From: Terriglobia bacterium
GTDB lineage: Bacteria; Acidobacteriota; Terriglobia; Versatilivoradales; Versatilivoraceae
Reading direction: 5' to 3'
Length of the DNA stretch: 64,000 nucleotides
Assembly (NCBI GenBank): GCA_951813285.1
Contig: OX638355.1
Location: 4,712,437-4,776,436, forward strand
Each line of letters opens with the position of its first letter. Position 1 is the stretch's first letter. Shown in pieces: positions 9,348-47,182 of the stretch. The notes beneath the pieces are model-generated. The model saw only the letters and a program-made list of their open reading frames with translations. It was not told the origin of the DNA and searched no databases. Position numbers and translations under genes: made by a program.

Positions 9348-9596
9348 GGGTCCTCCTTTGTTTTCGGGACTTTGAGGCGGGCTGAGGTGAGGCGGCGCCA
9401 GCCGTGGGCGGTTCAGGGGGCCGCCGGAACGGCGCCTGCCCGGCCGCCCCTTCCGGGAGCCGCACGGATTCCGTAACCGAAGGCGGGCTGAAAAGGCCGT
9501 ATTCTACCCAGTTTGCCCGGGGACATTCCAGTGAAATAGAATGTTTGGAACAGTTGAGAGATCCTGTACACTGAGGACCCGTTCGGGGAGGTAACC

Positions 9597-10379: not shown

Positions 10380-10408
10380 CCGACCTGTCAACCCCCACGG
10401 AAATCCCC

Positions 10409-12845: not shown

Positions 12846-13005
12846 GCTTGCGATCTTGTCGGCTCCCGGATTTCTCTGTGCTGGATGGCTTGAGTCGAAA
12901 CAACGTTGACGGACGAGGCGGGAAATGTGGATTTCGGATTGTAGATTCTTGATTTGAGGCTAAACCAGTCGTCCTTACCCCCAAATCCACAATCGGAAAT
13001 CAACA

Positions 13006-13025
13006 GAGCCTTTTGCAAAAGGCTC
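13006..13025. terminator. Perfect palindrome GAGCCTTTTGCAAAAGGCTC (8-bp stem, TGCA loop) downstream of the minus-strand OCD-family gene
   Basis: Self-complementary 20-mer 74 nt downstream of the OCD-family stop. The same 'gagccttttgcaaaa' half-site is also the outer TIR of MITE family A, so it may be a repeat module rather than a dedicated terminator. Confidence 0.25.
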
Positions 13026-13098
13026 AACAATCAACGATTCCCTTTGTGGATATCTCTTTTCCCTTTTCGCCCGCATTTTGCGTCGAGGCACGGCCTCG

Positions 13099-15225: not shown

Positions 15226-15589
15226 GTCTGAAGGTAATGTCCTGGCTTTGGGTGGGCTGACGGCCCCCTTCGTATCAGCCTTCGGCTGGTCTTCCTCCCT
15301 GTTGGGCTGGCGTTTGCCCCCCTCCGCATCAGCCTTCGCCTGTCGGCTCGGCTTCTGCGACTCCCCTCAAGGGGAGAGTGACGGAGCCGCTTGAGGGAGG
15401 TTCGAGTAACAGCCCGCCCCAGAATGCCCCAAGCCGTCCCCCCAAGTCGAGCGTTTTTGGATTGGGGCGCGTTCGAGGGGGCTTTTCCTGGGGGTGTGGT
15501 TGACGTGGTTCGAGAGAAGCTGTGCGTTGGGGGAAGGGCGCACCTGGTTCGCCGCCTTCGCGGCTGACGGAGTGCAGAATTCACACCCC

Positions 15590-21133: not shown

Positions 21134-21249
21134 AGGGGACGTTGTTGAATTACTGGAATAACTTGAAGAAAGCGAGTAGGGAGCGTTTTCAATCAAAAGC
21201 AATTCAGGAACGGCCGATCCAATATATTCCAGTAATTCAACAACGTCCC
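21134..21249. mobile_element. MITE-like element, family A (116-bp form), inserted in an ankyrin-repeat gene
   Basis: Termini GGGGACGTTGTTGAATTACTGGAA ... TTCCAGTAATTCAACAACGTCCCC. The ankyrin reading frame begins immediately at its right end. Confidence 0.6.
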
Positions 21250-21499: not shown

Positions 21500-21961
21500 T
21501 TGACCGATGATTTGGGAGTCACCATGAAACGTGAATCGGCCGGCGCTTACCAGGTCGCCTGGATTTTGGTTGTCGTTATGGGAGGCTGCGAAGCCCTATC
21601 GGCAGGCGGCGTTGAAGCAAACGAGGGCCCGAGCTGCCAAGACTGGAATACGAAGAGATTTTTCGCGTCCGCGTCGCTAGAGAAGGTGACCGCCTGCCTC
21701 GAAGCGGGGGCCGATCCCAACGCACGGGCAAGTTTTTCACGTGAGACGCCCTTGTACCCGGCAAAGAAACGGACCGAACCCAATCCCGAGGTGATTGCCG
21801 CCCTGGAACAGGCCGGAGCGGAATCGCCTTGGATCGAGATCATGTTTTTCAAGTATGTGTCACTGCCAATCGTGACGGCGTTGGCGGTTAGTGCATTCAG
21901 ACGGTGGCGCCGCACAGCCCGTCCAACCCCCTCAGGGCAGGAAACGATCCAGCCCGTCTGA
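21500..21961 (+). CDS. Ankyrin-repeat protein with N-terminal signal peptide and C-terminal TM helix
   Basis: 'SLEKVTACLEAGADPNARASFSRETPLYPA...PEVIAALEQAGAE' are ankyrin-like repeats. N-terminal hydrophobic 'VAWILVVVMGGCEA'. C-terminal 'IEIMFFKYVSLPIVTALAVSAF'. The real start may be the Met at 21524. Confidence 0.6.
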   Translation: MTDDLGVTMKRESAGAYQVAWILVVVMGGCEALSAGGVEANEGPSCQDWNTKRFFASASLEKVTACLEAGADPNARASFSRETPLYPAKKRTEPNPEVIAALEQAGAESPWIEIMFFKYVSLPIVTALAVSAFRRWRRTARPTPSGQETIQPV

Positions 21962-22741
21962 GCAGTGCTTCATGCGTTTGAAGGCCTCGATCATGTCGGT
22001 GATGTCGTGGCCGGGGCAGACCATTCGGAATCCCTGGGCGGCCCGCTCTTCCGCTTCGCTGGGGCTGTTGGTGACGTAGCCCGCGGCCACGCCGGTCTCC
22101 CTGGAAGCTTTCAACACCTCCTGCACCAGCGCCTCGGCCTCCGTCGAGGGCCGGAATTCCCGGGTCGGTTGCTGGCCCAGGGCTTCGGCCCCCACCGCCC
22201 GTTCCAGGTCGTAGGGACCGATCAACACGCAGTCCACGTCGGGCACCGCCATCATCTCCCTCACGTTCCGGACCCCGCTCGGGGTCTCCACCATCACCAC
22301 CGTCAGTATCTGGTCGTTGGCATTCTCGGTGTAGTCGAAATAGCTGTGGCCGGCGTGGTAGGCGGTCCGCAGGCCGGTGGCCGAGCGGTTTCCCCTGGGC
22401 GGGAACTTGGCCGCACGCACAATGCTCTCGCACTGCTCGGCCGTCTCCACCATGGGAATGATGACCCCCAGAGCCCCCAGGTCCAGCACCCTCCCGATCC
22501 AGGCCGGATCGGGTCCCAGCGGCCGCACCAGGGGAACCGTATTCCGATGGACGAAGGGCGCCATGGAGGCGTTGATGCTCGACTCCGACCAGGCCCCGTG
22601 CTGCCAGTCGATCCACACGAAGTCGAATCCGTGCTGGACGGCCTCCTCGGCGATCTCGGGTGACGGGTAGTAGAGAGAAGGACCGGAAATGATCCCGCCC
22701 TCGAGCAGCTTCTTACGAGCCAGATTGACTTTCATCGACAT
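21932..22741 (-). CDS. HpcH/HpaI aldolase family protein (second copy)
   Basis: 'GFDFVWIDWQHGAWS', 'VIIPMVETAEQ' and 'VMVETPSGVRNVREMMAVPDVDCVLIGPYDL' are hallmark HpcH/HpaI segments. Confidence 0.85.
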   Translation of the reverse strand: MSMKVNLARKKLLEGGIISGPSLYYPSPEIAEEAVQHGFDFVWIDWQHGAWSESSINASMAPFVHRNTVPLVRPLGPDPAWIGRVLDLGALGVIIPMVETAEQCESIVRAAKFPPRGNRSATGLRTAYHAGHSYFDYTENANDQILTVVMVETPSGVRNVREMMAVPDVDCVLIGPYDLERAVGAEALGQQPTREFRPSTEAEALVQEVLKASRETGVAAGYVTNSPSEAEERAAQGFRMVCPGHDITDMIEAFKRMKHCSDGLDRFLP

Positions 22742-22755
22742 TACCTTTCCTTGAT

Positions 22756-22903
22756 GAGCCTATTGCAAAAATTCGTCGTGCAGCGCTGGGGACGTTGTTG
22801 AATTACTGGAATAACTGGTAAAGACCGCGTAGGAGACATTATTGAACCAAAGCAATTCGGGAAGGGTTAATCGAAGTGATTCCAGTAATTCAACAACGTC
22901 CCC
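22756..22903. mobile_element. MITE-like element, family A (with left outer TIR GAGCCTATTGCAAAAATTCG)
   Basis: Same termini as 3622..3806. Internal 'caattcgggaagggttaatcgaagtgattcc' is related to the 52468 copy. Confidence 0.6.
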
Positions 22904-22968
22904 TATTCCACGGCGCACTGTCCCTTCGTGGATAACTCCTTTGGTCATTCCGGGATAGCCCAAGTGAG

Positions 22969-23913
22969 TCAGCAACTCACTCCCTTGCCCTCGGAACCGA
23001 ACACGGCCAGACGGTCCTCGTCCCCGGTCTCCCGGCTTTCCGGCGACACGTAGTGATACTGCACGGCCCAGCGCTGCCGGTCGGTGCGGTTGGCGGGAGT
23101 GCCGTGAGGCAGGAGCGCATCGAACACCAGGCAGCCGCCGGCCCTCATGGGAATGGCCACCCGGGGGAGCCTTGCGATCTCGCTGTCGCAGATCTGCCAG
23201 TCACGCCTCATGAAGTGTGCTCGGGCACCTTGTTGATGCCCCCCTTCGATCACCTGCATGCAGCCGTTTTCGGGAGTGGCCCGGTCCAGGGCGATCCAGA
23301 CGCCTACGATTGGAGTGGTCTGTGTGAGGTTGAAGTAGGCGCGGTCCTGGTGCCAGGGCTTCTCCCTTCCGCCGGGAGGCTTGATCAGCGCCATGTCCTG
23401 GTAGAGTCCCGGCTTTCCTCCCAGAATCCGGCCCAGCACCCGCATGAGAGAGGGATCCTCCGCCAGAGCCTTGAGGCCCGGGTTCTCCTCCCGGGTGAAG
23501 CCCATGAACTTGCGGACAAAACGCATCCGGGTTGCCGCCTCGAGCGACGGCAGGCGTTTCCCGGAGTGCCCCAGGGCCAGATCTGCGAATCGCGGGCCCT
23601 TGGGCGCGGCAAAGGGCTTTCCCTGCAGCTCCGGCAACTGCTGCCTGACCGCACCCTCGAAATAGACCGACTCGCAATCCGGCCGCGGGCTGGTGCCCAA
23701 TCGGTAGAGCTCCTGCCTGGCCGCCTCCACGCGGGCCATCGAAAAAGCCTCGTGAACCACCAGGTACCCGCGTTGCCGAAAGAGGGCCAGCTCCTTCTGG
23801 TTGACGGCTTCAAAACCCGTGATTCCCTCCGCCACTGTCTGATACCGGTACAGATCGGGATCGTATGCGGGTATTTCGGGCTCGAAGACCACTCGCAGTT
23901 CAGGTCTGCTCAT
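22969..23913 (-). CDS. Phytanoyl-CoA dioxygenase (PhyH) family Fe(II)/2-oxoglutarate oxygenase
   Basis: 314 aa. 'KPWHQDRAYF' (HxD) and 'GCLVFDALLPHGTPANRTDRQRWAVQYHY' (distal His, Arg) fit the PhyH fold. Confidence 0.85.
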   Translation of the reverse strand: MSRPELRVVFEPEIPAYDPDLYRYQTVAEGITGFEAVNQKELALFRQRGYLVVHEAFSMARVEAARQELYRLGTSPRPDCESVYFEGAVRQQLPELQGKPFAAPKGPRFADLALGHSGKRLPSLEAATRMRFVRKFMGFTREENPGLKALAEDPSLMRVLGRILGGKPGLYQDMALIKPPGGREKPWHQDRAYFNLTQTTPIVGVWIALDRATPENGCMQVIEGGHQQGARAHFMRRDWQICDSEIARLPRVAIPMRAGGCLVFDALLPHGTPANRTDRQRWAVQYHYVSPESRETGDEDRLAVFGSEGKGVSC

Positions 23914-23961
23914 GAAATCATTCCTGCGTTCAACAACGTCCCCCTCGCTCCCAGCGCTCGC

Positions 23962-25068
23962 TCAAGCCAACCGATGAGACTCCACCACCAGCCGCTCCAG
24001 CTCGCCCCGATCGGGGACGCAGCCGATCCCCGGCCCCGGCAGAGCCCGGATCCGCCCGGGAGCGGAAAGCTCGATTTCCGGCACGGAAAGGTCCTTCCGG
24101 TAGAAGCGGCTGGAGGGAAAGATATCGGCGGGATAGCCGATGTTGGGGAGGGTGGCCAGGGCAATGCAGTGACAGGCCCCCACCGCCGACTCCAGCATCC
24201 CCCCCACCCAGCAGGGAATTCCACCCTTCTCGGCTTCACGCAGGATTTGAACCGCCGGGGTTAATCCACCCACGCGCGCGGGCTTCAAGTTGATCCAGCC
24301 GCAGGCGCCGAGGTCGATTGCCTGGCGGGTGCGTTCCCGCGAGACGATGCTCTCGTCCAGACACAACGGGGTCTTCAGGCACCGCTGCAGCTCGGCGTGG
24401 TCCAGCAGATCGTCGTGGCGTAGCGGCTGCTCGATCATGGCCAGGCCCAGCGAGTCCAGGGCCTGAAAAACGGGCAGGTCCCGCAGTCGGTAGCCGCTGT
24501 TGCAGTCCACGTGCATCACCAGCTCCGGGAAAGCCTCACGCACGCTGCGAACCATCTCCACGTCCCAGCCGGGCCTGAACTTAAGCTTGACCCTGGGAAA
24601 GCCGGCCTCGACCGCGCCGCCGATGGTTTCCAGCAGCTCGGGGACGGTGTCCATCACCCCGAAATCGGCCCCCACCTCGATGGTGTCGCCCCGGCCGCCC
24701 AACAGTTGCCAGAGTGGCATTCCCCGCCTTTTGGCTTCCAGGTCCCACCAGGCCAGATCCAGGCCGGCCTTGGCGAAAGGGTTGCCCTTGAAGGGGGCCA
24801 ACTGCTGCTGCAGGGCCTCTCCCGAATCGATCTCCCGCCCCAGGAGCCGCGGCGCCAGCCAATCCCGAATCAGGGCAAAGACCCCTCCGGCCCACTCCGG
24901 GGAATAGAGGGGAGATTCCCAGGGCGTTGACTCCCCCCAGCCCTCCAACCCTTCAGCCGACATCCTGACCAGCACGCTCTCGATCACGTGCCCGTCGCCA
25001 TAGGCCGTGCGGAAGGGGTAGATCACCGGCATAGCCACCCGGTGGAGTTCGATGGCTTCGATTCTCAT
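23962..25068 (-). CDS. Enolase-superfamily enzyme (o-succinylbenzoate synthase / N-acylamino-acid racemase / dipeptide epimerase-like)
   Basis: From internal 'MRIEAIELHRVAMPV'. 'KLKFRPGWDVEMVRSVREA', 'MHVDCNSGY', 'MIEQPL', 'CLDES' carry the metal-ligand D/E/D pattern of the MR/MLE family. Confidence 0.85.
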   Translation of the reverse strand: MRIEAIELHRVAMPVIYPFRTAYGDGHVIESVLVRMSAEGLEGWGESTPWESPLYSPEWAGGVFALIRDWLAPRLLGREIDSGEALQQQLAPFKGNPFAKAGLDLAWWDLEAKRRGMPLWQLLGGRGDTIEVGADFGVMDTVPELLETIGGAVEAGFPRVKLKFRPGWDVEMVRSVREAFPELVMHVDCNSGYRLRDLPVFQALDSLGLAMIEQPLRHDDLLDHAELQRCLKTPLCLDESIVSRERTRQAIDLGACGWINLKPARVGGLTPAVQILREAEKGGIPCWVGGMLESAVGACHCIALATLPNIGYPADIFPSSRFYRKDLSVPEIELSAPGRIRALPGPGIGCVPDRGELERLVVESHRLA

Positions 25069-25610
25069 GGTGCTCCTGGTACGTCCCGCCGGGCGGATCA
25101 TACGAGAGGGAAACAACGCATCTTCATGGCCTGTCGGGAACAAGGGCCATGTCGTGCAAAACCGGTTTTCTACTTATCGAACATGGATGCACAGGATAAA
25201 CAGTCGGCTTGTGCTTCACGTGGGCTCACCGGCATTTGCTGCCGCCGCCTACGCGGCTCGACACCCATACACGACGTTTCCCATGGGCTGACGCCCACGG
25301 CTAAGTGCTGCCGCGGCTTCGCCGCTCTCAAGGAAGCCGGCTAAAGCAGCATATTCTCAGGTAAGTCCGGCCCCCGCCCTGTCGTGCGGATCATTCGAGG
25401 GTGAAACAATCAGAAATTGAAAATCCTTTCGCGACCTTGGCATCCCTTCGCGGTTCACCTCAATGCCTTAGTGGCCCTTCGTCGTTCTTCGTGGCCCTTC
25501 GTGGATATCTCTTTTCCTTTTGTCTTTTCTCGTTTGTTTCAAATAAGAAGGCACCGGAACGAGGTCTTGGGCAGGGCCGGAAACCCTCCTGGGGAAAAGG
25601 GGCAAATCCC

Positions 25611-25638
25611 TTGACTCGGGGTCAAAATACAGTATTCT
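25611..25638 (+). promoter_or_regulatory. Candidate sigma70-like promoter (TTGACT-N16-TATTCT) with a TTGAC..GTCAA inverted repeat over the -35, about 150 nt upstream of the FG-GAP gene
   Basis: 'cccTTGACTcggggtcaaaatacagTATTCTgtg'. It is the only AT-enriched patch in this intergenic region. Confidence 0.25.
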
Positions 25639-25782
25639 GTGCGCGATTTACAACCTGCATCTGACCCGCATTCGATCCTCCCCAAGGGATTCCGTGCAAC
25701 GGCCCCGCCGGAGAGTCCCGGTTGCCGCTCCGGAAGAGCCATTCCCCAAGGAGGACCCGTTTCCACCGGAGGAGCCGGACCC

Positions 25783-28581
25783 ATGAAACACGCCCTGCGA
25801 GCCGCCGCGACCGCCGCCATTCTGACACTGGCCCTCTTTTCGACGTCCCTGCCGGCCGGAGAACCCATCCTCTGGGTGGAGGATTCCTTCGAGGACTTCG
25901 CCGACGGCCGGTTGGACGCGGCGGGACAGAACCTCTACGTCAGCCGGGACGGCGCCCTTCGCACCATCCACCGCTTCGATCTAAATAGAGACGGGCATCT
26001 GGACCTCATCTTCAACAGCACCCACGACAACTTCACCTACATTCCGGCCACGCTGGGCCTGTTGGAGTCCCCGCGGCGAGTTCGCCGGGCCGAGCTGGCG
26101 GTGGAGGGGAGCCTCAGGGTGGTGCTGGAGGACCTGAACCGCGACGGCCACCTGGACGCCCTCTTCTGCCCCAACCGCAGCGGGCTCCAGAACCCCAGGC
26201 GACTGCTCACCATCCTGTGGGGAGGCAAGGACGGCTGGTCCAACCGGAGAAGCCATGGCCAACTGCCGGTCTACGGCGCGCTGGCCGTGGCCGCGGCCGA
26301 CCTGGACCGGGACGGTTGGCCCGACATCGTCACCCTCAACCAGACCGCCTGGCTTCCCGGCCAGCCTGAAGGAAACATCCTGAGAATCTTCTGGGGGAGC
26401 CCGGAGGGGTTTCTCCTGACCGACACCGCCGAGCTCGGCATCCCCCAGGCACTGGACCTGGCTACCGGAGATTTCGACGGCGACGGGTTCAAGGAAGCGG
26501 CCGTGTTGAGCGAGCGCGGAGTGGCGGAGGTGGTCCGAGGCCGGGCGGCCCCGGGGTCGCCTCGGGAGCTGAACCGACAGGAGGTGCCGCTCCCGGGCAA
26601 GGAGGGCCTGTGCCTCACGGCCGCCGATGCCGACGGCGACTCACGCATCGACCTGCTGGTGGGCACCGATCGGGGTAGAGTCTACTTCGTGGGCGGAAAA
26701 GCCGGAACCGGCTGGGGAGAGCCCCGCACCTGGGCCGCTCCCAACGCCTCCCACATTGCCGTGGGTTACCTCAACGGAGACAGGCATCCCGACCTGGTGT
26801 TGACCGACTTCACCCTGGCCCGGGCCGGAGGGGGGGAAGCCGCCGGGGCCTCCGAAAGCGTCGCGAAGCCTCTCCAGATTCTCTGGGGCTCGGCCGAAGG
26901 GTTCGACGCCGGCCGCTCCACCGGCTTGGCCATTGCCTACGCCCGGTCCAGCGCGGTGGGGGACCTGGACGGAGACGGCCACCAGGACCTGTCGGTAGCG
27001 GTCCACCAGAGCTCGAAGCAGTTCGAAACCAACTCACTGGTCTTCTTCGGGACCGGCAGCAGCGTGCTGGACCAGCATCCCTTGACGCTGCGGACCATCG
27101 GCGCCACCGGCACCGCCATCGTTCCACCCGGCGGCTCCCTGCCGGGCCGGGTCCTCTTCTGCAATAGCCTGGGCGGCACCGTGGCCGAACGGGTGCCCTT
27201 GCACGTCTACTGGGGAAGTTCCGAAGGTTTCTCCGCCTCTAACCGTTGGGAGATCCCCTTCCAGAGCGGCTATGAAGCCAGCGCCGCCGACCTCAACCGC
27301 GACGGCTATCCGGACCTGATCGTGCTCAACTCCCAGCACGCCGGCGACGCCGCCGCAATGGATCCCACCGCCGGGGCCAATATCTTCTGGGGCGGACCTG
27401 GCGGCTTCGACCTGGAGGGCCGGCGAACCGTCCTGCGGGAGCGCAACCTCGGCTCCAGCAACGTGGCCGACCTCAACCGCGACGGCTACCTGGACCTGGT
27501 ACTGGGTGCCTTCGAAGCCAAAAAGGGAAAGAACTATCTTGTGATCCGATATGGATCCGAAGAGGGGTTTCTGCCGTCCGGCCGGCTGGCGCTACCCTTC
27601 GACTATCGCACCGTCGGCAGCCTGGTCGCCGATCTCAACGGGGACGACTGGCTGGACACCGCCTTCGTCTCCTCGCAGCAGAACCGCCTCCACATCCTCT
27701 GGGGCGGCCCGGAGATGTTCTCCCCGGAGCGCCGCAGCCAACTCCGCATCCCCTTCCCCATCAGCCTGGAAGCCGCCGACTTCAACGGGGACGGACAACT
27801 GGACCTGGCGGTGGGCAGCTACAGGGACCCGGTGTCCCACCACCACGACATGGGACTGTCGATTTTCTGGGGCCAGGACGGACAATTCCGATCCTCCAAC
27901 GCCCAATGGCTTCCCGGATTCACCCCCATCGGCATGGCCGTGGCCGATTTCGACGGCGACGGCCACCTGGACCTGTTCTCGCCCCACTACCTGGCGGAGC
28001 TGACCCGCGAGTCGGTGGCCTCCTACCTCTATTGGGGAGGCCCCCAGGGGTTCGGCACCCGCAACCGCACCATCCTCATCACCGACTCGGCCCACGACGC
28101 CATGGCCGGGGACTTCGATCAGGACGGACGGCTGGACCTGGCCGTCTCCTGCCACACCCGGGACGGGAACCACCATACCGACTCCAAGGTCTTCTACAAT
28201 GACGGGAATCGGTTCCGCAATCCCCGGGTGGAAACCCTGCCCACCATCGGAACCCACTGGATGTGGATTCAGGACGTGGGGCACATCCATCATCGCCAGT
28301 GGAAGCAGGTCTACCGCTCCTCGGTCTTCGCCTGGGACCGGGAGGTCTCGGCGGGCCGGCTGACCTTCCGGGCCGAGCAGGCCCAGGGAACGGGGTTGAG
28401 CTTCCAGGTCCGTTCCTCACCCGACTCAAAGGGACTGGCCGAGCAGGCTTGGCGCTCTCTGCAGGAGGGAGCCTTCGATCTGAATCTCGGAGACCGGCGC
28501 CTGCAGTACCGGGCCGTGCTGGAATCGGGCAACGGAGATCTCTATCCGGTCGTGGACCGGGTCGAGGTCCAACTGAAGTAA
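25783..28581 (+). CDS. Secreted FG-GAP/VCBS-repeat protein (integrin-alpha-like beta-propeller, CRTAC1/ASPIC-like)
   Basis: Start at 25783 'MKHALRAAATAAILTLALFSTSLPAGE' (signal peptide; GGAGG 10 nt upstream). More than 8 repeats of the DxNxDGxxD type ('DLNRDGHLD','GDFDGDG','ADFNGDGQLD','ADFDGDGHLD'). Confidence 0.85.
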   Translation: MKHALRAAATAAILTLALFSTSLPAGEPILWVEDSFEDFADGRLDAAGQNLYVSRDGALRTIHRFDLNRDGHLDLIFNSTHDNFTYIPATLGLLESPRRVRRAELAVEGSLRVVLEDLNRDGHLDALFCPNRSGLQNPRRLLTILWGGKDGWSNRRSHGQLPVYGALAVAAADLDRDGWPDIVTLNQTAWLPGQPEGNILRIFWGSPEGFLLTDTAELGIPQALDLATGDFDGDGFKEAAVLSERGVAEVVRGRAAPGSPRELNRQEVPLPGKEGLCLTAADADGDSRIDLLVGTDRGRVYFVGGKAGTGWGEPRTWAAPNASHIAVGYLNGDRHPDLVLTDFTLARAGGGEAAGASESVAKPLQILWGSAEGFDAGRSTGLAIAYARSSAVGDLDGDGHQDLSVAVHQSSKQFETNSLVFFGTGSSVLDQHPLTLRTIGATGTAIVPPGGSLPGRVLFCNSLGGTVAERVPLHVYWGSSEGFSASNRWEIPFQSGYEASAADLNRDGYPDLIVLNSQHAGDAAAMDPTAGANIFWGGPGGFDLEGRRTVLRERNLGSSNVADLNRDGYLDLVLGAFEAKKGKNYLVIRYGSEEGFLPSGRLALPFDYRTVGSLVADLNGDDWLDTAFVSSQQNRLHILWGGPEMFSPERRSQLRIPFPISLEAADFNGDGQLDLAVGSYRDPVSHHHDMGLSIFWGQDGQFRSSNAQWLPGFTPIGMAVADFDGDGHLDLFSPHYLAELTRESVASYLYWGGPQGFGTRNRTILITDSAHDAMAGDFDQDGRLDLAVSCHTRDGNHHTDSKVFYNDGNRFRNPRVETLPTIGTHWMWIQDVGHIHHRQWKQVYRSSVFAWDREVSAGRLTFRAEQAQGTGLSFQVRSSPDSKGLAEQAWRSLQEGAFDLNLGDRRLQYRAVLESGNGDLYPVVDRVEVQLK

Positions 28582-28611
28582 CCGCGGCTACGCGGCGGAA
28601 AGGATGCCACC

Positions 28612-29679
28612 ATGAACGCCAGCAGAGGGTTGGGCGGGGCGATTCTGTTTCTGCTTGGATTGGCGGGTCTCTGCACCATTCCGGGGTGCTCCCCCGCCCC
28701 GGACCCTTTGGCCCCCGGGACCGAGCTTCACTGGAGTAAATCCACGCCGCTTCCCGAGCCGCGGGCCGGTCATGCCGCCGGCCTGCTGGACGGCAAGTTC
28801 GTGATCGCGGGCGGCACCTGGTGGGAGGGGGAAATGGGCAACTGGACCCAAAAGATCTTCTCGGCAAGCACCCACGCCTTCGATCCCGAGACCGAGGCCT
28901 GGGAGCGGCTGCCGGATGCCCCCTTCCCCTTCGGCTACTCGGCCTATACCGTGGTGGAAAACCGGCTTTACGTTCTGGGGGGCTTCGACGGCCGGCAGGA
29001 GATCGGCAAGATCCTGAGGCTATCCAGGAATGGGGACGGATACCAGTGGGAGGTCTTCGGCGAGCTGCCCCGGACCCGCCTGTTCGGATGGGCCGGAAGT
29101 TCCGGGTCTTCCCTGTTCCTGCTGGGCGGGGTGGAGCGCTTCGAACCCACCGACGAGGCGGGCACCTGCTGCACCTCCAAGACGGCCACCAACAGCTTGA
29201 GCGTTCTGGACACGGCCGCGCCCGAAAAAGGCTGGCGGGAGCTATCGCCCTATCCCGGTGGCAAACGGTGGCTGTTTGCTGCCGAGGGCGACGGAGAGAA
29301 CATCTGGCTGTTCGGCGGGATCGACTCTCCCGAGGCGGGGGTGCCGCCATTCCAGTTCAACCAGGCCCTGCAATACGACCTCAAGCAGGACCTCTGGGAG
29401 GAACTTCCTCCCCTGCCCGAGGACACCCTGGAGGCCAGGCCGCTGGTTCCGCTCCATGTTCCGGGGAGAATCCTCTTCATGAGCTTTGCCAAGACGGTGT
29501 GGCAGCTCGACCTGCAAACCCTGGAGTACAGCCAACTCACACCCATGCCCGAAGAAGCCTTCGTGGATCGGTTCGCCTGGCATGAGGGCCGCATCATCGG
29601 CGCCGGGGGAGAGAACAAGATCGAGTCTCCCCGGCGGCGGTCGGAATGGACTTTCATCGGCGAGTTTCGGGCGGAATAG
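28612..29679 (+). CDS. Kelch-repeat beta-propeller lipoprotein; same fold as NanM/YjhT (N-acetylneuraminate mutarotase)
   Basis: Lipoprotein-type signal 'LLGLAGLCTIPGCS'. Six blades with GG doublets ('VIAGG','LYVLGGFDG','LFLLGG','IWLFGG','IIGAGGEN'). About 355 aa, matching NanM size. Calling it NanM-like is an inference. Confidence 0.7.
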   Translation: MNASRGLGGAILFLLGLAGLCTIPGCSPAPDPLAPGTELHWSKSTPLPEPRAGHAAGLLDGKFVIAGGTWWEGEMGNWTQKIFSASTHAFDPETEAWERLPDAPFPFGYSAYTVVENRLYVLGGFDGRQEIGKILRLSRNGDGYQWEVFGELPRTRLFGWAGSSGSSLFLLGGVERFEPTDEAGTCCTSKTATNSLSVLDTAAPEKGWRELSPYPGGKRWLFAAEGDGENIWLFGGIDSPEAGVPPFQFNQALQYDLKQDLWEELPPLPEDTLEARPLVPLHVPGRILFMSFAKTVWQLDLQTLEYSQLTPMPEEAFVDRFAWHEGRIIGAGGENKIESPRRRSEWTFIGEFRAE

Positions 29680-29770
29680 CCGTTGGGGAAAAAGATACCC
29701 ACGAAGAGACACGAAGAATGACCCCCGGGAAAGAGACCCGGGAGCGGCCCACGGAATCGGAAAGAAAAAA

Positions 29771-30952
29771 ATGACCGAAGGCACCCTGCCCTCCTCAATC
29801 ACCGAGAAGCTGCTGGCGGCCGTCAACCCGGAGCGCCTGCTGCAGACGGCCACGGACCTGGTGGAGGTGCCCAGTCCCACCCGAAGCGCCGGACCCGCCG
29901 CCAACCGCCTGGCCGCCATTCTCCGGGAGGACGGATTCAAGGTAGAACGTCCGGAGGCAGACTGGGCCGAATCCCCGGCGGTGGTGACCCGGCTGGACAG
30001 CGGCAGGCCCGGGCGCACCCTGCAGTTCGATGGGCACCTGGATACGGTCCACCTGCCCTTTGTGCCTCCCCGCTTCGAGCAGGGCGTGCTGCACGGCTCC
30101 GGGGCCTCGGATATGAAAGGGGGGATTGCCGCCTTCGTGGAGGCCCTGCGGGTGCTCCGGGAGACCGGCAGCCTGTCGGGCGGCGGCATCCTGCTGACCG
30201 CCCACGACCACCACGAGGGCCCCTGGGGGGACGGCCGCCAGGTGCGAGCCCTGATCGATGCCGGCTACACGGGAGACGGGGTGCTGCTTCCGGAATACCT
30301 GGGGGATCGGCTGGCCCTGGCCGGGCGAGGGTCGGGCATCTTTGAAATCACCATCAGCCGGGAGGAGCCGCCCGTCCACGAGGTGCTGCGTCCGGAGGGG
30401 CTGCCCGACGTGCTGGGGACCGGGGTGGAGTTGGCCGCCCGCTTCGCCCGCTGGCAGCAGGAGCTCGAGCAGCAGCGCGACCCCTACGCCGGCCACGACT
30501 CGATCTTCATCGGTAAATTCCACTCGGGCGAAATCTACAACCAGTCTCCGCGGGAATGCCGTCTCAACGGCATCCGCCGCTGGGTGACTCCGGGCGTGGG
30601 ACCCCGGGTGGAGGCCGACTTTCGCCAGCGTCTGCAGGATCTGGCCCGGGAGAGCCGCACCCGAATCACGGCAGACTACCACTTCATGGCCGAAGCCTTC
30701 CGCATCGATCCCGCCGAACCCCTGGTCTCGGCGCTTCAGTCGGCCCACACGGCCGCCGCCGGCAAGCCGCTGCCCCTTGGAGGCAAGCCCTTTGTGGACG
30801 ACGGCAACGCCTTCTGCAACCGGGCCGGCATCCCCGCCCTGACCCACGGCCCCCTGGCCCGGGGCGCCCACACCACCAGCGAGACGGTCACGCTGGACGA
30901 GCTGGTCCGCGTGGCCCGGGTCTACGCCCTGACGGCTGCAACCTATTGTTAG
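29771..30952 (+). CDS. M20-family metallopeptidase / deacylase (ArgE/DapE/ACY1-like)
   Basis: From 'MTEGTLPSS'. 'GHLDTVH', 'GASDMKGG', 'HDHHEG' metal-binding motifs of the M20 family. Confidence 0.85.
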   Translation: MTEGTLPSSITEKLLAAVNPERLLQTATDLVEVPSPTRSAGPAANRLAAILREDGFKVERPEADWAESPAVVTRLDSGRPGRTLQFDGHLDTVHLPFVPPRFEQGVLHGSGASDMKGGIAAFVEALRVLRETGSLSGGGILLTAHDHHEGPWGDGRQVRALIDAGYTGDGVLLPEYLGDRLALAGRGSGIFEITISREEPPVHEVLRPEGLPDVLGTGVELAARFARWQQELEQQRDPYAGHDSIFIGKFHSGEIYNQSPRECRLNGIRRWVTPGVGPRVEADFRQRLQDLARESRTRITADYHFMAEAFRIDPAEPLVSALQSAHTAAAGKPLPLGGKPFVDDGNAFCNRAGIPALTHGPLARGAHTTSETVTLDELVRVARVYALTAATYC

Positions 30953-31003
30953 GGGTTGGTGGAAAGTGGGGAGTCTGCGTTTCTCTATGTGAGGTCGGTG
31001 TTG

Positions 31004-31237
31004 GCCCCCCTCCTGATCGACTGCGGGCTGCGCCCTTGTCTCTCCGACTCCCCCTCAAGAGGGGAGTGATACTTGAGGCCTGCACCAGGCCTCTTGCCCG
31101 ATTCCTGGGCAGGATGTAAACCATGTTCCCGGTCTACCGCATAGACTCCGTTCCCTCTTCATCACACGGATATCACTCCCCCCTTGAGGGGGAGTCGGAG
31201 AAGCCGAGCCGCAGGCGAAGGCTGATGCGGTGGGGGG
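31004..31237. repeat. Hairpin-TIR repeat, family R copy 1 (TIR TCTCCGACTCCCCCTCAAGGGGGGAGTGATA at both ends, inverted)
   Basis: Left 31040-31070 and right 31172-31202 are reverse complements. Each contains the CTCCCCC-tcaa-GGGGGAG stem-loop. The first about 130 bp match 52233-52365 and 58010-58244 (reverse). Confidence 0.55.
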
Positions 31238-31376
31238 TTCGCACAAGGCGAGCCACAGGCGAGATCTTGTGCGCCGCTGCGGGGTTCGCACGAGGTGAGT
31301 TGCCAAGCGAAAACCTGTGCATCGATGTTAATTCTTCTCATAAATCACAGGGTGGAAAGCCCCGCCGGCTTGCCCA

Positions 31377-32489
31377 TCAGGCGCTGACCTTGAGGCGGTG
31401 GGCCTTGACTCTGCCCTGGCCGTCCTCGATGGTCCAGTAGGCGGCCAGGATGGTGCCGTCCTGCAGGGGCAGCAGCGACGCCTGGCCGAACCGCAGGGAC
31501 TGGAACATCTCGTGGATCACCTGGCCGGAATCGGTCGCCAGAGACTGACCGGCGTTCCAGATGAACTTCTCCTCCAGCGTCTTCCAGCGGTCTCCCGCCA
31601 GGTCGACGATCCGGATGCAGATGCCCAGATCCCCCTCCCGGTGGCAGTGGATGGTCAGCAGCAGGTCGTCGCCCAGCCACATCAGGTTGGATGCCTGGGC
31701 TTGATGACCGGTGTTGATCGGGTCCAACCAGGTGTGGCCGTTGTCCCGGGAGATGGCCACGTAGTTGGGCAGGTGTTTGGAGGCCGGAAAGTCGTAGGCC
31801 CAGGTAATGGCCACCACCCGCCCTGGCTGCATCTCGCAGATCCGTGACTCCCAGGCCGTCACTTCCCTGCCGGGGAGGTCGAAGAAGCGACCTCTGTCGT
31901 CCCAGGTTTCCCCGTTATCCCGGCTCCTGAACAGGACGCCGTACTGGCCGGAGGGATTGGAGCCGTCGGGCATCTTGAAGACGCCGGCCACGGCCAGCAG
32001 GTCACCCTCCGCGGTCTGAATGCAGGGACCCGAGATCTCCAGCAGTTCCGGGTGGCTGCGGGGAATGACCCGAGGGACTGTCCAGGTCCTGCCGTCGTCC
32101 TCGGAGAAAGAAACGATGTCATCTCCCGGCAGGATGCCTCCGGTCTCTTCGATGCTGATCCCCTGCTCCAGGTCGTGCCGGTAGAAGCAATAGCCGACCG
32201 CGATCAAGCGACCGTCCCGCAGCCGGGTGGCCTTCAGGCATTCGCTGGTCACCACCGGGTCCAGCGATTTGTCGTAGAGCGGCCCCTGCAGAGTCCAGCT
32301 TCGCCCGCCGTCCCGGGACCGCGAGACATGGGTGGTGGAGTTGGGCGACTCGAAGGCTTCTCCAAGGACGAACAGATTCAGCAGCTCCCCGTCGGACAAC
32401 TCCACCAAGCCGGGGAAAATCCCGTGGCGACTGTGGACTTGAGGCCTGGGATTGTCGTAGATGGTGACGTCTTCAATGACCTCGATCAT
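31377..32489 (-). CDS. BNR/Asp-box repeat protein, sialidase-like (GH33-like) fold, no signal peptide
   Basis: Four Asp-boxes 'SRDGGRSW','SEDDGRTW','SRDNGETW','SRDNGHTW'. 370 aa with no N-terminal hydrophobic segment. Confidence 0.8.
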   Translation of the reverse strand: MIEVIEDVTIYDNPRPQVHSRHGIFPGLVELSDGELLNLFVLGEAFESPNSTTHVSRSRDGGRSWTLQGPLYDKSLDPVVTSECLKATRLRDGRLIAVGYCFYRHDLEQGISIEETGGILPGDDIVSFSEDDGRTWTVPRVIPRSHPELLEISGPCIQTAEGDLLAVAGVFKMPDGSNPSGQYGVLFRSRDNGETWDDRGRFFDLPGREVTAWESRICEMQPGRVVAITWAYDFPASKHLPNYVAISRDNGHTWLDPINTGHQAQASNLMWLGDDLLLTIHCHREGDLGICIRIVDLAGDRWKTLEEKFIWNAGQSLATDSGQVIHEMFQSLRFGQASLLPLQDGTILAAYWTIEDGQGRVKAHRLKVSA

Positions 32490-32715
32490 GGATGGGTCCT
32501 CTCGAAAGGGGTGGGAGGGAATCTTCCGCTCCGGGCAAACCGGCGGAACCGGAAGGCCCCCGAGCGGGCCGCGGCGCGGTTTGCCAACGGGACAGCCATG
32601 GTGTATGGTTTTCCGTCGAGTGTCAATCGAAGTTTAGGGGCTTCGAGGGAGACAGAGCCGGACAGGTCCGAGGAACGAAACCTCCCATTTCATCGCACTG
32701 AGGAGACAGCCGCTC

Positions 32716-33468
32716 ATGAATCCGTATTCACAGTATCACCAGGAATTTTTCAGAAACGGTTTCGTCAGGCTCAAGGGCTACCTGACGCCCGAGGAGGTGC
32801 GGAACCTGGAGAAGAATCTAAAGCGCTACTTGGGCGAGATCGCCCCCGGCCTGCCCCCCACCGACGTCTTTTACGAGATCCAGGGGCGCGCGGAAACCCT
32901 CAAGCAGATGCAGAAAATGGAGGCGCACGACCCTTTCTTCCAGTCCATTACCGCTCTCCCCAAGTTCGCCAGGCTGGCCGAAGCGCTACTGGACACGCCG
33001 GTCGTTCTCCGAGGGGTAGAGCTCTTCAACAAGCCGGCGGGTATCGGAAAGCCCACGCCTCCCCACCAGGACGGATACTATTTCTGCCTGGTCCCCAGCC
33101 AGGCCGTGACCCTGTGGTTCCCGCTGGATCCGGTGAGCGAGGAGAACGGGTGCATCCGCTACGTCCGGGGCTCGCACCGCAAGGGCATCCGTCCTCACCG
33201 GGTGTCGAACATCCTGGGTTTTTCCCAGGGACTGAGCGACTGGGGGCCCGAGGATGAAGCCGCCGAAGTCAAGGCGCTGGCTTCGCCGGGAGACCTGCTG
33301 GCCCACCACTGCGACATGATTCACCGCGCCGATGCCAATCCCAGCCGGATCTCCCGCAGGGCTCTGGCCATCGTCTACGACGCCGCCTCCGCCACCATCG
33401 ACCAGGCAGCCCAAGCCCGCTACAAACAGTCCTCGACGGCTCAGCGGGTCGAGATACAGTCCCGGTGA
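32716..33468 (+). CDS. Phytanoyl-CoA dioxygenase (PhyH) family protein (second copy)
   Basis: 'PHQDGYYF' (HxD), 'HHCDMIHRADANPSRISRRALAIVY' (distal His, Arg). Confidence 0.85.
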   Translation: MNPYSQYHQEFFRNGFVRLKGYLTPEEVRNLEKNLKRYLGEIAPGLPPTDVFYEIQGRAETLKQMQKMEAHDPFFQSITALPKFARLAEALLDTPVVLRGVELFNKPAGIGKPTPPHQDGYYFCLVPSQAVTLWFPLDPVSEENGCIRYVRGSHRKGIRPHRVSNILGFSQGLSDWGPEDEAAEVKALASPGDLLAHHCDMIHRADANPSRISRRALAIVYDAASATIDQAAQARYKQSSTAQRVEIQSR

Positions 33469-33483
33469 AATTCCCCGAACCGC

Positions 33484-34611
33484 CTACTCCACTCTCAGAC
33501 GGGCAAAGCGGATCTGGGTGACGGATACCTCGGTGCACCAGAAGGTCGCCAGGATATCGCCGTCGTCCAACACGGTCGCCATGGGAGCCCCGAAGGCAAT
33601 GCTGTCATGGGACCGCGGGTAGGACTCGGGCGCATCGGTTCCGATCTTGTCGCGGCCGGTGGCGTCCCAAACCTGGATCTGGTTGTCGAGGTCCCAGGTG
33701 AGGCCTCCGTCCTGGGAGCAGGCCGCGAAAAACCCGGGAGGGTCGGTCTCCCGCACCGTATAGACCACCGCCATGCGGCCCCCGCCCACATCCACGGCCC
33801 AGTTGGTCTGTCCGGGGATGTTGGTCGGGACCGGCTCCGACCACTCCCGCCCGTCCGGGGTGCCGGTGGAAGCGTACAGCGTCAGGTTGCTCCCGGACTT
33901 GAGATCGGCCGTCCAGAACAGGGCAAACAGGCTGTCGTCGCGCTGCCGGATGACTCGCCCGTGCCAGTGGCCCTTACCGGTGTCCGATCCGACCCCGAAG
34001 ATCACCGGATCCCCCCAGCTTCGACCTTCATCCGAGGAAAAGAGCCCCACGGTCCTGGGCTTGTAGGGACCGGGGTCTTGGTAGGCGTGCCACTGGTCGA
34101 ACGCCTGAAACCAGTCTCCGTTCGACAAGACCACCGCGGAGCAACTGGGGGTGATCACCATGCCTTCGGGAACCCGTAGAACCCGTGGCCCCGTCCAATT
34201 GGCGCCCTTGTCGGCGGACCGGTAGAAGAGAGTGTCGGCAGGGAAAATGCCGCCGGTCTGCTCGTTGAACAACGGATGGGCCGGATCGGACCGGTCCCAG
34301 CGCTGGGCCGTCATCAGCAGGGAGCCGTCGGGCAGACAAGTGCACATGGGGGCGTGGTAGGAGTAGGCCCGGTCGTCCCCGGAGGCGTCATGGATCAGTC
34401 CCTCGGTCTGCCAGCTCCGCCCTCCGTCGCTGGAGCGCGCCTGTACCATCGCCGAGTCCACGCTGTAGAGGGCCTGGCCCCGTTGAAAGGTGCAGAGCAG
34501 CTCCCGCGGCGTCACCTGGACCAGGTAGCTGTGGCAGGCGAAATGGAACTCGTAGCCCGGATTGGTATTGCGGTAGACCACCCCCTGGTCGACCAGACGG
34601 ATGCTTGCCAT
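33484..34611 (-). CDS. BNR/Asp-box repeat protein, sialidase-like fold, no signal peptide (second copy)
   Basis: 'SSDGGRSW','SADKGANW','SSDEGRSW','SQDGGLTW' Asp-boxes. Confidence 0.8.
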   Translation of the reverse strand: MASIRLVDQGVVYRNTNPGYEFHFACHSYLVQVTPRELLCTFQRGQALYSVDSAMVQARSSDGGRSWQTEGLIHDASGDDRAYSYHAPMCTCLPDGSLLMTAQRWDRSDPAHPLFNEQTGGIFPADTLFYRSADKGANWTGPRVLRVPEGMVITPSCSAVVLSNGDWFQAFDQWHAYQDPGPYKPRTVGLFSSDEGRSWGDPVIFGVGSDTGKGHWHGRVIRQRDDSLFALFWTADLKSGSNLTLYASTGTPDGREWSEPVPTNIPGQTNWAVDVGGGRMAVVYTVRETDPPGFFAACSQDGGLTWDLDNQIQVWDATGRDKIGTDAPESYPRSHDSIAFGAPMATVLDDGDILATFWCTEVSVTQIRFARLRVE

Positions 34612-37495: not shown

Positions 37496-37708
37496 GGGAC
37501 GTTGTTGAATAATTGGAAATGCCGGGCGGGGTGATTCTGAAATGCCTTGGATTCGACTGGAAGGGCTCGAAACCTCGTCGTTTGACGGGATGTGCTGAGA
37601 ACCAGGACCGTTCAGCCGGGCCTGACCGAGCACCGGCTGCTCCTTTGCTGCCGGCCAGGGCTCACGCACGGGAAAAAAGTGATTCCCGTAAGCCAACAAC
37701 TTCGCCAT
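37496..37708. mobile_element. MITE-like element, family A long subfamily (about 210 bp); right terminus degenerate
   Basis: Left terminus GGGGACGTTGTTGAATAATTGGAA. The interior is about 75% identical to the 38392..38603 copy. Confidence 0.5.
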
Positions 37709-40809: not shown

Positions 40810-40906
40810 CTCGAATCCCTCCCATTGGAAGACGGGGTCCGGTGACCGGGAGGCTCCCTTGGCTCCAGTCGCCCTCCGGGGCTGTCGCGTCCCGGCAGGG
40901 ACACCC

Positions 40907-45165: not shown

Positions 45166-45263
45166 GGCGTCCTCACTTTCTCACACAGTGGCGTTGGTTG
45201 GTTAATCGGATAGCTTCGATTCTTGTCTCACAGGGATGAACAGGATGGATCCACCGAATCCGG

Positions 45264-46016: not shown

Positions 46017-46089
46017 GGTGTCCTCTCCCGCAGCCTTTGTTCAGGCCCCGGTGGCGGCGGTTGCGCCTCCAAGGGCGGCTCGCCCATCC

Positions 46090-47163: not shown

Positions 47164-47182
47164 TGGACTCCTATTAGATCCT

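Follow-up and report, generated by a model that had tools for sequence, protein, structure and literature searches.

Cytoplasmic sialidase-fold proteins and a permuted NanM homologue in a putative sugar-acid catabolic gene set of an Acidobacteriota genome

Gene content of the locus

We analyzed a 64-kb stretch of a Terriglobia bacterium chromosome (contig OX638355.1, positions 4,712,437 to 4,776,436; hereafter the window), in which nine genes between positions 21932 and 34611 encode, among others, two proteins of the sialidase fold, here named BNR1 and BNR2, and a Kelch protein related to the sialic acid mutarotase NanM. Genes were called by a method based on GC content at third codon positions (GC3), combined with Pfam and NCBIfam scans of the open reading frames (ORFs) of the window. 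All nine genes are present and form five transcription units of mixed orientation. A minus-strand operon runs from an enolase-superfamily gene of the OSBS/N-succinylamino-acid racemase (NSAR) subgroup (23962–25068; TIGR01928) through PhyH1, coding for a Fe(II)/2-oxoglutarate dioxygenase of the PhyH family (22969–23913; Pfam, 115 bits; HxD motif seen as HQD), to a gene for a class II (pyruvate) aldolase of the HpcH/HpaI family (21932–22741). The divergent plus-strand operon encodes a secreted FG-GAP/VCBS repeat protein of 933 residues with a visible signal peptide (25780–28581; Pfam FG-GAP_3, 194 bits), an exported Kelch beta-propeller with a signal/lipobox-like N-terminus (28612–29679; AlphaFold2 pLDDT 90), and a cytoplasmic M20 deacylase of the ArgE/DapE family (29771–30952; Pfam), whose NCBIfam subfamily matches fall under the cut-offs. 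The remaining units are BNR1 (31377–32489, minus strand; Pfam BNR_2), PhyH2 (32716–33468, plus strand; Pfam, 107 bits), which is divergent from BNR1 and convergent with BNR2, and BNR2 (33484–34611, minus strand; Pfam BNR_2), after which a kinase gene (34840–37311) lies on the same strand.

The longest-ORF calls overextend three of these genes (23962–25143, 25639–28581, and 29486–30952). Their true starts are likely the Met codons at 25068 for the enolase-superfamily gene (MRIEAIEL), 25780 for the FG-GAP gene, and 29771 for the M20 gene. No signal peptide was seen in the translations of BNR1, BNR2, the M20 deacylase, both PhyH proteins, the enolase-superfamily protein, or the aldolase; in the AlphaFold model of BNR1, residues 2–11 already form a propeller strand. 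A preliminary description of the region had listed these genes together with a third PhyH dioxygenase. Pfam, NCBIfam, and the translations bear out the FG-GAP, Kelch, M20, HpcH, and enolase-superfamily genes and the two BNR genes without signal peptides, whereas a phmmer self-scan finds only two PhyH genes in the whole window. The absence of canonical nanA, nanK, and nanE also holds, as no sizeable ORF of the window has a DHDPS/NanA, ROK/NanK, or NanE match in Pfam.

The DNA of the window is 92–96% identical to the chromosome of Candidatus Versatilivorator (Acidobacteriota, Terriglobia), and the comparison with Planctomycetota–Verrucomicrobiota–Chlamydiota genomes first proposed was therefore misdirected. 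DUF1501 and PSCyt1/PSCyt2/PSD1 genes, often taken as planctomycete markers, lie at 39343–44143 of this Acidobacteriota genome and probably account for the error.

Family membership could be assigned more firmly than substrates. The enolase-superfamily protein scores 257 bits against a TIGR01928 cut-off of 200.65 and is therefore of the OSBS/NSAR type and not an acid-sugar dehydratase; OSBS and NSAR activities are not separable from sequence, and Pfam scans revealed no men genes in the window. For this reason, we rejected a classical dehydratase/aldolase pair formed by the enolase-superfamily protein and the aldolase. The aldolase is well above the Pfam threshold (94 bits vs. 25) and far under the cut-offs of all equivalog models (HpaI, GarL, and RhmA), so that its family is assigned and its substrate is not. 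The best relatives of PhyH1 in the PDB are EvdO2, PHYHD1, and SnoK.

Fold and conserved residues of the BNR and Kelch proteins

BNR1 and BNR2 are full-length paralogues with 27% identity (BLASTP). AlphaFold modeled BNR1, with 37 orthologues as input, at a pLDDT of 93.8 and a pTM of 0.92, and the sialidase fold is therefore real; both proteins have a confident six-bladed sialidase fold with Asp-box repeats. Residues were mapped on Salmonella typhimurium NanH, the sequence of which is identical to PDB 1dil and carries R37, D62, E231, R246, R309, Y342, and E361 at the expected positions. With hhalign, the BNR1 family and NanH are in register from 52–293 and 67–309, respectively; E231 corresponds to the invariant E214 and R309 to R293, and R246 falls in a nonconserved BNR1 segment. 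In MAFFT alignments, the nucleophile Y342 corresponds to Q336 of BNR1, within an FGQ motif invariant in the 37 orthologues, and to an alanine (A342) in BNR2, whereas three other paralogue subfamilies of related loci retain the tyrosine in this column. In BNR1, BNR2, and one group of paralogues, a W-x-x-D insertion stands in place of the second arginine (R246), which is retained in secreted paralogues. The arginine of the RIP motif aligns with I24 or a gap, an invariant R21 being located three residues upstream. The equivalent of R309, placed by sequence alignment alone, is ambiguous between R293 (hhalign) and R284, and the position of the acid/base aspartate falls near E44–E47 by spacing only. 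BNR2 has a histidine (H217) in place of the glutamate partner E231 and lacks the tyrosine, both glutamates, and the second arginine. It has an invariant set of its own: Y85, R104, R107, D172, H217, R287, D316, H335, and D336.

Because the nucleophile tyrosine, the RIP arginine, and the second arginine are missing, BNR1 and BNR2 are, as judged from these alignments, not canonical sialidases. The preliminary description had made a sialidase role depend on the catalytic residues, and such a role is refuted for canonical chemistry. They also differ from the GH33 reference (NanH, PDB 1DIL) by the lack of a signal peptide. None of the NCBIfam families matched either protein, and a NanH search of 86 loci retrieved no canonical GH33, although BNR1- and BNR2-type proteins are named "sialidase" or "exo-alpha-sialidase" by public annotation (JGI and NCBI pipelines). 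In a sample of 76 diverse members of the wider family, hypervariable position 336 is occupied by Q, A, Y, F, L, K, E, H, C, S, or W and is the most variable of pocket positions that are otherwise conserved; E151, E214, W230, R284, and the F-G motif are retained almost throughout. Position 336 thus looks like a specificity determinant defining subfamilies.

By analogy with GH93 enzymes, a carboxylate-based hydrolysis or hydration through the invariant E151 and E214 is a possible chemistry for BNR1; the similarity of the BNR protein to GH93 exo-arabinanases (PDB 3A72) is marginal and local (E = 0.014). Dfer_1899 of Dyadobacter fermentans (PDB 5HX0), a structural-genomics target, has neither the R21 segment nor W230. 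It is not orthologous and has no assigned function, and therefore gives no functional transfer. Two other routes to the PDB sialidases were discarded. When BNR1 and BNR2 were aligned with HMMER, as single sequences or as profiles, most matches were blade-shifted ones between Asp-boxes and unusable for residue mapping, and a putative true sialidase of locus L006, tried as a bridge, matched only through its GDSL-esterase domain.

The Kelch protein, a six-bladed Kelch propeller with a periplasmic export signal, had been described as having the size and architecture of NanM. It scores far below the cut-offs of the NanM models TIGR03547/PRK14131 (57.5 bits vs. 416 and 54.4 vs. 256) and of TIGR03548, the family of cyclically permuted mutarotases (35 bits vs. 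243), with which its match is collinear (52–265 to 5–201). Without permutation, BLASTP and hhalign match only 74–96 residues with NanM, and these out of register, Kelch 192–266 corresponding to NanM 48–121 (74 columns with hhalign). This offset led us to suspect a circular permutation. We therefore moved the N-terminal blades of a 37-sequence Kelch family alignment to its C-terminus and compared it again with NanM by hhalign. The permuted family aligned over 279 columns with NanM 19–359 (E = 7.7e-15, probability 98.4%). A scan of 21 cut points yielded a single register, with a score plateau exactly where all of NanM becomes collinear, which indicates a specific permutation and not repeat noise.

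In the permuted alignment, the NanM motif GEAKPGLR corresponds to GGENKIESPRRR of the Kelch protein, and the invariant E334 and R343 fall on its Glu and Arg (E209 and R215, mature numbering). These two NanM residues are reportedly catalytic (Severi et al. 2008). According to a review, mutagenesis located the NanM site in the center of the propeller. NanM also speeds the anomerization of 2-keto-3-deoxynononic acid (KDN) (PMC8141875), and the fold is therefore not restricted to N-acetylneuraminic acid (Neu5Ac). On this sequence evidence, the Kelch protein is a circularly permuted NanM homologue that belongs to neither TIGR03547 nor TIGR03548; the proposed NanM relationship thus stands as homology with an aligned Glu/Arg motif and fails as orthology. 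It plausibly works like an anomerase, and its retained motif points to such a function on a keto-acid sugar other, or broader, than Neu5Ac. A tblastn search of plasmids with the Kelch protein as query gave nothing informative.

Recurrence of the gene set in other genomes and across the window

The BNR1 family is 55–63% identical between phyla (at least eight), with about 55 invariant residues. A genome scan recovered 80 BNR1 loci from Acidobacteriota, Planctomycetota, Verrucomicrobiota, Kiritimatiellia, Lentisphaeria, Chloroflexota, Latescibacterota, Gemmatimonadota, and Acidimicrobiia. The full nine-gene synteny is found in 16 loci of a Versatilivoraceae-related clade, with BNR1 proteins at least 73% identical, and is not kept beyond. 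This nine-gene arrangement is not due to chance. As the preliminary description would require, the genes are co-conserved, in synteny within the clade and, in other phyla, as BNR1 orthologues accompanied by Kelch, FG-GAP, PhyH, HpcH, and enolase-superfamily genes.

For neighbor counts, we clustered the flanking ORFs de novo, annotated the clusters with Pfam, and grouped the loci at 85% BNR1 identity, which left 52 groups; single-sequence phmmer, which undercounts divergent FG-GAP, Kelch, and M20 proteins, was abandoned in favor of this procedure. SSF symporters occur in 20 groups, in 11 of which they are adjacent to and co-directional with BNR1. Next come SDR oxidoreductases (17 groups), GFO/IDH/MocA oxidoreductases and class III aminotransferases (14 each), PhyH proteins (10), and PALP enzymes (9). 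AstE/AspA deacylases, class IV aminotransferases, TonB-type outer membrane proteins, and a secreted protein without Pfam match are each present in eight groups, and Kelch, enolase-superfamily, HpcH, and M81/MlrC proteins each in seven. The list is completed by two FG-GAP clusters (six and four groups), DHDPS (six), sulfatases and RidA (five each), and GntR/FCD regulators (four). The HpcH aldolase gene lies directly downstream of BNR1 in three groups, including a Kiritimatiellia contig (loci L041/43, L046/47/49, and L068). In Acidobacteriota, a conserved block reads DHDPS, BNR paralogue, MBL, class III aminotransferase, GFO, BNR1, HpcH aldolase, PALP, M81, SDR, AstE, SDR, GFO, and RidA, with a Kelch gene further downstream and not contiguous. 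In a Lacunisphaera contig, the next gene downstream of the BNR1 orthologue encodes an M20 protein, FG-GAP orthologues (760–800 bits) adjoin BNR1 in an Opitutales locus (L026) and in L062, and homologues of PhyH2 (130–226 bits) lie near BNR1 in four loci (L005, L024, L030, and L032).

Two types of secreted protein were seen beside BNR1. One is a protein of about 500 residues without Pfam match, absent from the window and encoded directly beside BNR1 in the eight groups counted above (L084:11111-12748 and homologues in L021, L027–L031, L063, L071–L073, and L078); it may be an unrecognized glycoside hydrolase. The other comprises two further BNR subfamilies with signal peptides in Terriglobales-type loci (8171–9961 and 16213–17349 of L006; also L024, L042, L048, L052, and L083). 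These retain the tyrosine, the glutamate, and the second arginine and adjoin the Tyr-less cytoplasmic BNR1, which suggests a division of labor between the outside and the inside of the cell.

BNR2 orthologues (44–68% identity) were found in contigs of metagenomes and metagenome-assembled genomes (MAGs) of other lineages, the few with a taxonomic label being from Ardenticatenales and Thermomicrobiales. In the four contexts retrieved, an enolase-superfamily gene occurs in three, with BNR2 immediately downstream of it, DHDPS also in three, and PhyH in two. Other neighbors encode a 2-hydroxyacid dehydrogenase, Amidohydro_2 and Rieske proteins, a PIG-L deacetylase, GntR/FCD regulators, and SSF, MFS, or ABC transporters. 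Two of these loci (L088 and L090) show a Rieske, DHDPS, and PIG-L triplet and a 710-residue NHL/SGL-like propeller. At the level of families, the combination of PhyH, enolase-superfamily, BNR, and aldolase genes is thus seen, by sequence comparison, to recur in unrelated genomes in a context of sugar-acid oxidation.

Outside the nine genes, the window holds matches of predicted orthologue grade to BNR1 neighbors of other genomes, namely SSF, class III and class IV aminotransferase, PALP, AstE, and SDR genes. Since these lie at 6954–15584 and 44233–49253, the nine genes make up the middle third of a dispersed, putatively catabolic set at about 6.9–49.3 kb, a larger unit cut by the boundaries first drawn. 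The set is broken up by an ABC/GntR module, the kinase gene, and a DUF1501/PSD1 pair. Its left part starts with a Na+/solute symporter gene (Pfam SSF; 6954–8510, minus strand; 680–735 bits to the SSF genes next to BNR1 at loci L044 and L053–L059) and a second class II HpcH/HpaI aldolase gene (8556–9347, minus; Pfam, 73 bits; NCBIfam HpaI, GarL, and RhmA all under cut-offs). Then follow genes for an SDR oxidoreductase (9597–10379, plus; Pfam; about 245 bits to SDRs of distant BNR1 loci), a HemL/GntE-like class III aminotransferase (10364–11725, plus; Pfam and NCBIfam; 375–413 bits to its counterparts in distant loci), and an FAD amine oxidase of the N-methyl-L-tryptophan oxidase (MTOX)/sarcosine-oxidase type (11703–12845, minus; PRK11259, 373 bits vs. 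a cut-off of 257), with a 372-bit homologue in BNR1 locus L036. An ornithine cyclodeaminase (OCD)/mu-crystallin family gene, ketimine reductase-like (13099–14301, minus; Pfam and NCBIfam; true start probably near 14070), and a class I/II aminotransferase gene (14055–15584, minus; Pfam) have no counterpart in distant BNR1 loci, and their membership of the set is uncertain.

All genes of the right part are on the minus strand and were assigned with Pfam. They encode a class IV aminotransferase of the BCAT/D-amino-acid type (44233–45165; about 390 bits to class IV aminotransferases in BNR1 loci L006, L024, L048, L052, and L083), an SDR oxidoreductase (45264–46016; about 265 bits to SDRs of distant loci), a DoeB-like AstE/AspA-family N-acyl deacylase (46090–47304; weak NCBIfam DoeB match; about 250 bits to AstE in 11 distant loci), the start of which is probably downstream of 47183, a GFO/IDH/MocA oxidoreductase (47183–48172), and a threonine-synthase-like (PALP) enzyme of fold type II dependent on pyridoxal phosphate (PLP) (48192–49253; NCBIfam ThrC-like matches under cut-offs). 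The latter scores about 270 bits against PALP genes directly downstream of BNR1 and aldolase in L041, L046, L047, and L049. Further small-molecule enzymes are encoded downstream, at about 50240–51587 (plus), 51616–52119 (plus), 59645–60517 (plus), 60527–61324 (minus), and 62458–63618 (minus): Lyase_1 of the fumarase/aspartase family, a cupin, an RraA-like aldolase, a CN-hydrolase, and an alanine racemase. An SGL lactonase gene lies at 61355–62365 (minus).

The best solved relatives of the SSF protein are SiaT (PDB 5nv9, 189 bits) and SMCT1 (188.8 bits), followed by SMVT and NIS, the glucose transporters scoring far lower. As its nearest solved relatives carry carboxylates or anions, we place it, on these scores, in the anion/carboxylate branch formed by SiaT, SMCT, and SMVT.

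The gene after BNR2 (34840–37311, minus; Pfam) encodes a hybrid GAF-PAS histidine kinase/receiver/OmpR-type DNA-binding protein that is syntenic in the clade and is a candidate regulator. Three paralogous GAF-PAS histidine kinases, at 32–1900 (plus), 4914–6404 (plus), and 34840–37311, score 750–877 bits against one another and flank subclusters, which hints at a family of dedicated sensors. A search of the intergenic regions for an operator common to these genes gave no defensible regulon signal, only two kinds of repeat. The first resembles a miniature inverted-repeat transposable element or repetitive extragenic palindrome (MITE/REP-like), is about 113 bp long, and has terminal inverted repeats GGGACGTTGTTGAA (12 matches vs. 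0.5 expected); copies lie at 3654–3766, 21136–21249, 22789–22902, and 52471–52540 and solo ends at 23929–23942 and 37496–37509. The gap between PhyH1 and the aldolase gene is 227 bp long because one copy sits inside it. The second is a 23-bp motif, CCCTT(C/T)GTGGATATCTCTTTTCC, present twice where none is expected by chance, at 13040–13062 in the region of the amine oxidase and OCD genes and at 25495–25517 between the divergent enolase-superfamily and FG-GAP genes, with a degenerate copy near 22925–22947. This motif may serve as an operator or belong to another repeat.

Proposed pathway, alternatives, and known systems

We tentatively read the locus as the middle of a gene set that quite possibly harvests and degrades a carboxylate-bearing N-acylated amino sugar, of the ulosonic- or aldonic-acid type, from an extracellular glycan. 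The secreted FG-GAP protein would work on the polymer outside the cell; in other genomes, TonB-dependent receptors, sulfatases, and secreted BNR paralogues that have the tyrosine would also take part. The exported Kelch protein would equilibrate the anomers of the released keto-acid sugar, and the SSF symporter, operonic with BNR1 in many genomes, would import it. In the cytoplasm, BNR1 and BNR2 would act on the imported small molecule by a nonsialidase chemistry, for BNR1 most likely through E151 and E214 in analogy with GH93. The M20 and AstE deacylases would remove N-acyl groups, and the OSBS/NSAR-type enzyme may epimerize an N-acyl alpha-amino-acid-like center. The GFO and SDR oxidoreductases, the class III and class IV aminotransferases, and the ThrC-like PLP enzyme would strip the amino groups and leave a 4-hydroxy-2-oxo acid, which the class II HpcH aldolases would cleave, in place of NanA, into pyruvate and an aldehyde. 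The two PhyH dioxygenases may catalyze a hydroxylation or an oxidative deamination. Of the downstream dioxygenase and aldolase chemistry first proposed, the aldolase part is supported and the role of the dioxygenases is only associative; of the alternative offered then, another acidic sugar or a lipid head group, the acidic sugar fits best.

Several points weigh against this reading. Every enzymatic step is deduced from family membership, and the conserved BNR residues are placed in the pocket by sequence and secondary-structure register only. Any given partner occurs in only a minority of the BNR1 loci (13–38%), and the cross-phylum matches of the aldolase, Kelch, PhyH, and enolase-superfamily proteins are at family level (50–100 bits) and not at orthologue level. 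The enolase of the window is of the NSAR/OSBS type, whereas the enolases beside BNR proteins elsewhere are galactonate/mannonate-dehydratase-like. In Proteus mirabilis SiaT, we take the Neu5Ac-binding residues to be T58, S60, T63, Q82, and R135, the numbering of which we confirmed on the 5nv9 sequence. Within a gap-free stretch of the alignment, the SSF protein retains S60 and T63 and has Leu, Ile, and Trp in place of T58, Q82, and R135; by these residues, it is not a SiaT orthologue. Finally, the amino-acid-type enzymes of the set (MTOX-like oxidase, OCD, NSAR, M81/MlrC, and D-amino-acid-type aminotransferase) would suit an amino-acid or peptide substrate equally well.

This last point leads to the alternative that survives best, although we consider it somewhat unlikely: the set would degrade an unusual amino acid, an N-acyl-D-amino acid, or a peptide-like compound. 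NSAR and the M20, AstE, and M81 proteins would deacylate and racemize the substrate, PhyH would hydroxylate the amino acid at C4, and an aminotransferase would deliver the 4-hydroxy-2-oxo acid to HpcH; BNR1 and BNR2 would be nonglycosidase propeller enzymes or binding proteins, in line with the loss of the sialidase catalytic residues in both. The OSBS/NSAR-type enolase and the MTOX-like oxidase, both over their cut-offs, the M20 deacylase, the OCD protein, the GntE/GntC-like PLP enzymes, the ThrC-like PALP, the DoeB-like AstE, and, in distant loci, M81/MlrC and RidA all agree with such a route. We nevertheless favor an N-acylated amino sugar acid because the homology of the Kelch protein is with NanM specifically, because BNR1 loci often carry TonB-dependent receptors, sulfatases, GH-like genes (GHL10, GH106, and AXE1), and secreted Tyr-retaining BNR paralogues, and because BNR2 orthologues occur in sugar-acid oxidation modules with a galactonate-dehydratase-like enolase, Amidohydro_2, DHDPS, and PIG-L.

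A special case of the sugar-acid reading, unlikely in our view, is that the substrate is a nonulosonic acid (NulO), either of the sialic acid/KDN type or a 5,7-diamino sugar of the legionaminic/pseudaminic type, and that the set is a nonorthologous replacement of nan. At superfamily level, the parallel with nan is part for part: a sialidase fold, a NanM homologue, a symporter of the SiaT branch, a GFO protein of the YjhC family, pyruvate aldolases, and, in distant loci, GntR/FCD regulators and DHDPS. The presence of two deacylases and of two aminotransferases would fit a diamino sugar with two N-acyl groups, and sponge symbionts are reportedly enriched in "GH33" genes and exposed to a sialylated mesohyl (PMC8163846). 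This has to be set against the absence of the tyrosine nucleophile, the RIP arginine, and the second arginine, the loss of SiaT ligand residues, the low score of the distant-locus DHDPS proteins under the NanA cut-offs (110 bits vs. 281), and the lack of any NulO-specific marker or, in our searches, of literature on such a pathway. More speculative still, the BNR1-centered set might represent the first pathway for the breakdown of bacterial N-acylated amino-ulosonic acids, for instance the legionaminic/pseudaminic-type 5,7-diamino nonulosonic acids. A permuted NanM-like periplasmic anomerase and a SiaT-branch symporter would then feed a cytoplasmic enzyme of the sialidase fold, devoid of the tyrosine, for ring opening, hydration, or deglycosylation of the sugar taken up; the pairs of deacylases and aminotransferases would deal with the two N-acyl amino groups of this sugar, and the HpcH aldolase would replace NanA.

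It is very unlikely that the genes form no functional unit and are neighbors by shared ancestry in one Acidobacteriota family, with BNR genes that are degenerate, nonenzymatic sialidase relics. The complete synteny is limited to the Versatilivoraceae-related clade, the five transcription units are of mixed orientation, and a mobile-looking repeat sits inside one operon. However, BNR1 keeps 55–63% identity across at least eight phyla, with about 55 invariant residues; BNR2 is similarly conserved, and the same partner families surround both proteins in unrelated genomes, with partner orthologues in this window. Lastly, that BNR1 and BNR2 are true cytoplasmic exo-alpha-sialidases (GH33) feeding Neu5Ac into a modified pathway, as their Pfam BNR_2 matches, Asp-boxes, public names, and fold might imply, is hardly credible for two proteins that match no NCBIfam family and lack the nucleophile tyrosine, the RIP arginine, and the second arginine, BNR2 being also devoid of the glutamate.

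Literature searches on Versatilivorator, on Dfer_1899/5HX0, on legionaminic and pseudaminic acid catabolism, and on novel nonulosonic-acid degradation returned nothing describing this system. All parts come from superfamilies already known, and the overall scheme is similar to established pathways for acidic sugars. Neither the two BNR families nor the permuted relative of NanM nor the recurrent gene set appears to have been characterized. BNR1 and BNR2 represent two widespread, conserved families whose members have the sialidase fold, are cytoplasmic, and are devoid of the catalytic tyrosine, yet are labeled "sialidase." GH33 enrichment has been reported in MAGs of sponge symbionts, Acidobacteriota included (PMC8163846), and surveys of sialic-acid foraging based on GH33-like proteins, for example in environmental and sponge-symbiont MAGs, may overcount proteins of the BNR1 and BNR2 types. 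The recurrent set (SSF, BNR1, aldolase, PLP enzymes, deacylases, and oxidoreductases) occurs in bacteria of at least eight phyla from soil, freshwater, marine, and sponge-associated habitats and is now concrete enough to be tested with a handful of recombinant enzymes.

Three known systems resemble the set in part. In Geobacillus kaustophilus, an N-succinylamino-acid racemase and an M20 desuccinylase convert D- to L-amino acids. The window likewise has an OSBS/NSAR enolase outside any men operon and an M20 ArgE/DapE-type deacylase nearby, but no GNAT succinyltransferase was found, the two genes are in divergent operons, and the racemase gene is cotranscribed with PhyH and aldolase genes. With the nonphosphorylative RhmD/RhmA and GudD/GarL pathways, the set shares an HpcH-family aldolase, which in those pathways cleaves a 2-keto-3-deoxy acid, and BNR2 orthologues elsewhere stand beside dehydratase-type enolases, lactonase-type Amidohydro_2 proteins, and DHDPS. 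The enolase of the window is, in contrast, not of the dehydratase type, and the aldolase scores 94–116 bits against equivalog cut-offs of 369–441. The third system is the Escherichia coli nan system (nanCMS, nanT, nanA/K/E, yjhBC, and NanR), of which no part is orthologous. Here the Kelch protein is permuted, the transporter belongs to the SSF family and differs in its ligand residues, the aldolase is of class II (HpcH) instead of class I (NanA), NanK and NanE are missing, additional aminotransferases, a ThrC-like PLP enzyme, PhyH proteins, and NSAR are present, and the sialidase-fold proteins are cytoplasmic and without the catalytic tyrosine. The putative roles in the set nevertheless match those of nan: a periplasmic Kelch-propeller anomerase, a dedicated transporter for carboxylate sugars, a GFO/IDH/MocA oxidoreductase, an N-deacylase, and an aldolase that breaks the C–C bond and releases pyruvate. 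Distant BNR1 loci also have GntR/FCD regulators and lyases of the DHDPS family. The pathway is best read as analogous to nan and not orthologous with it.

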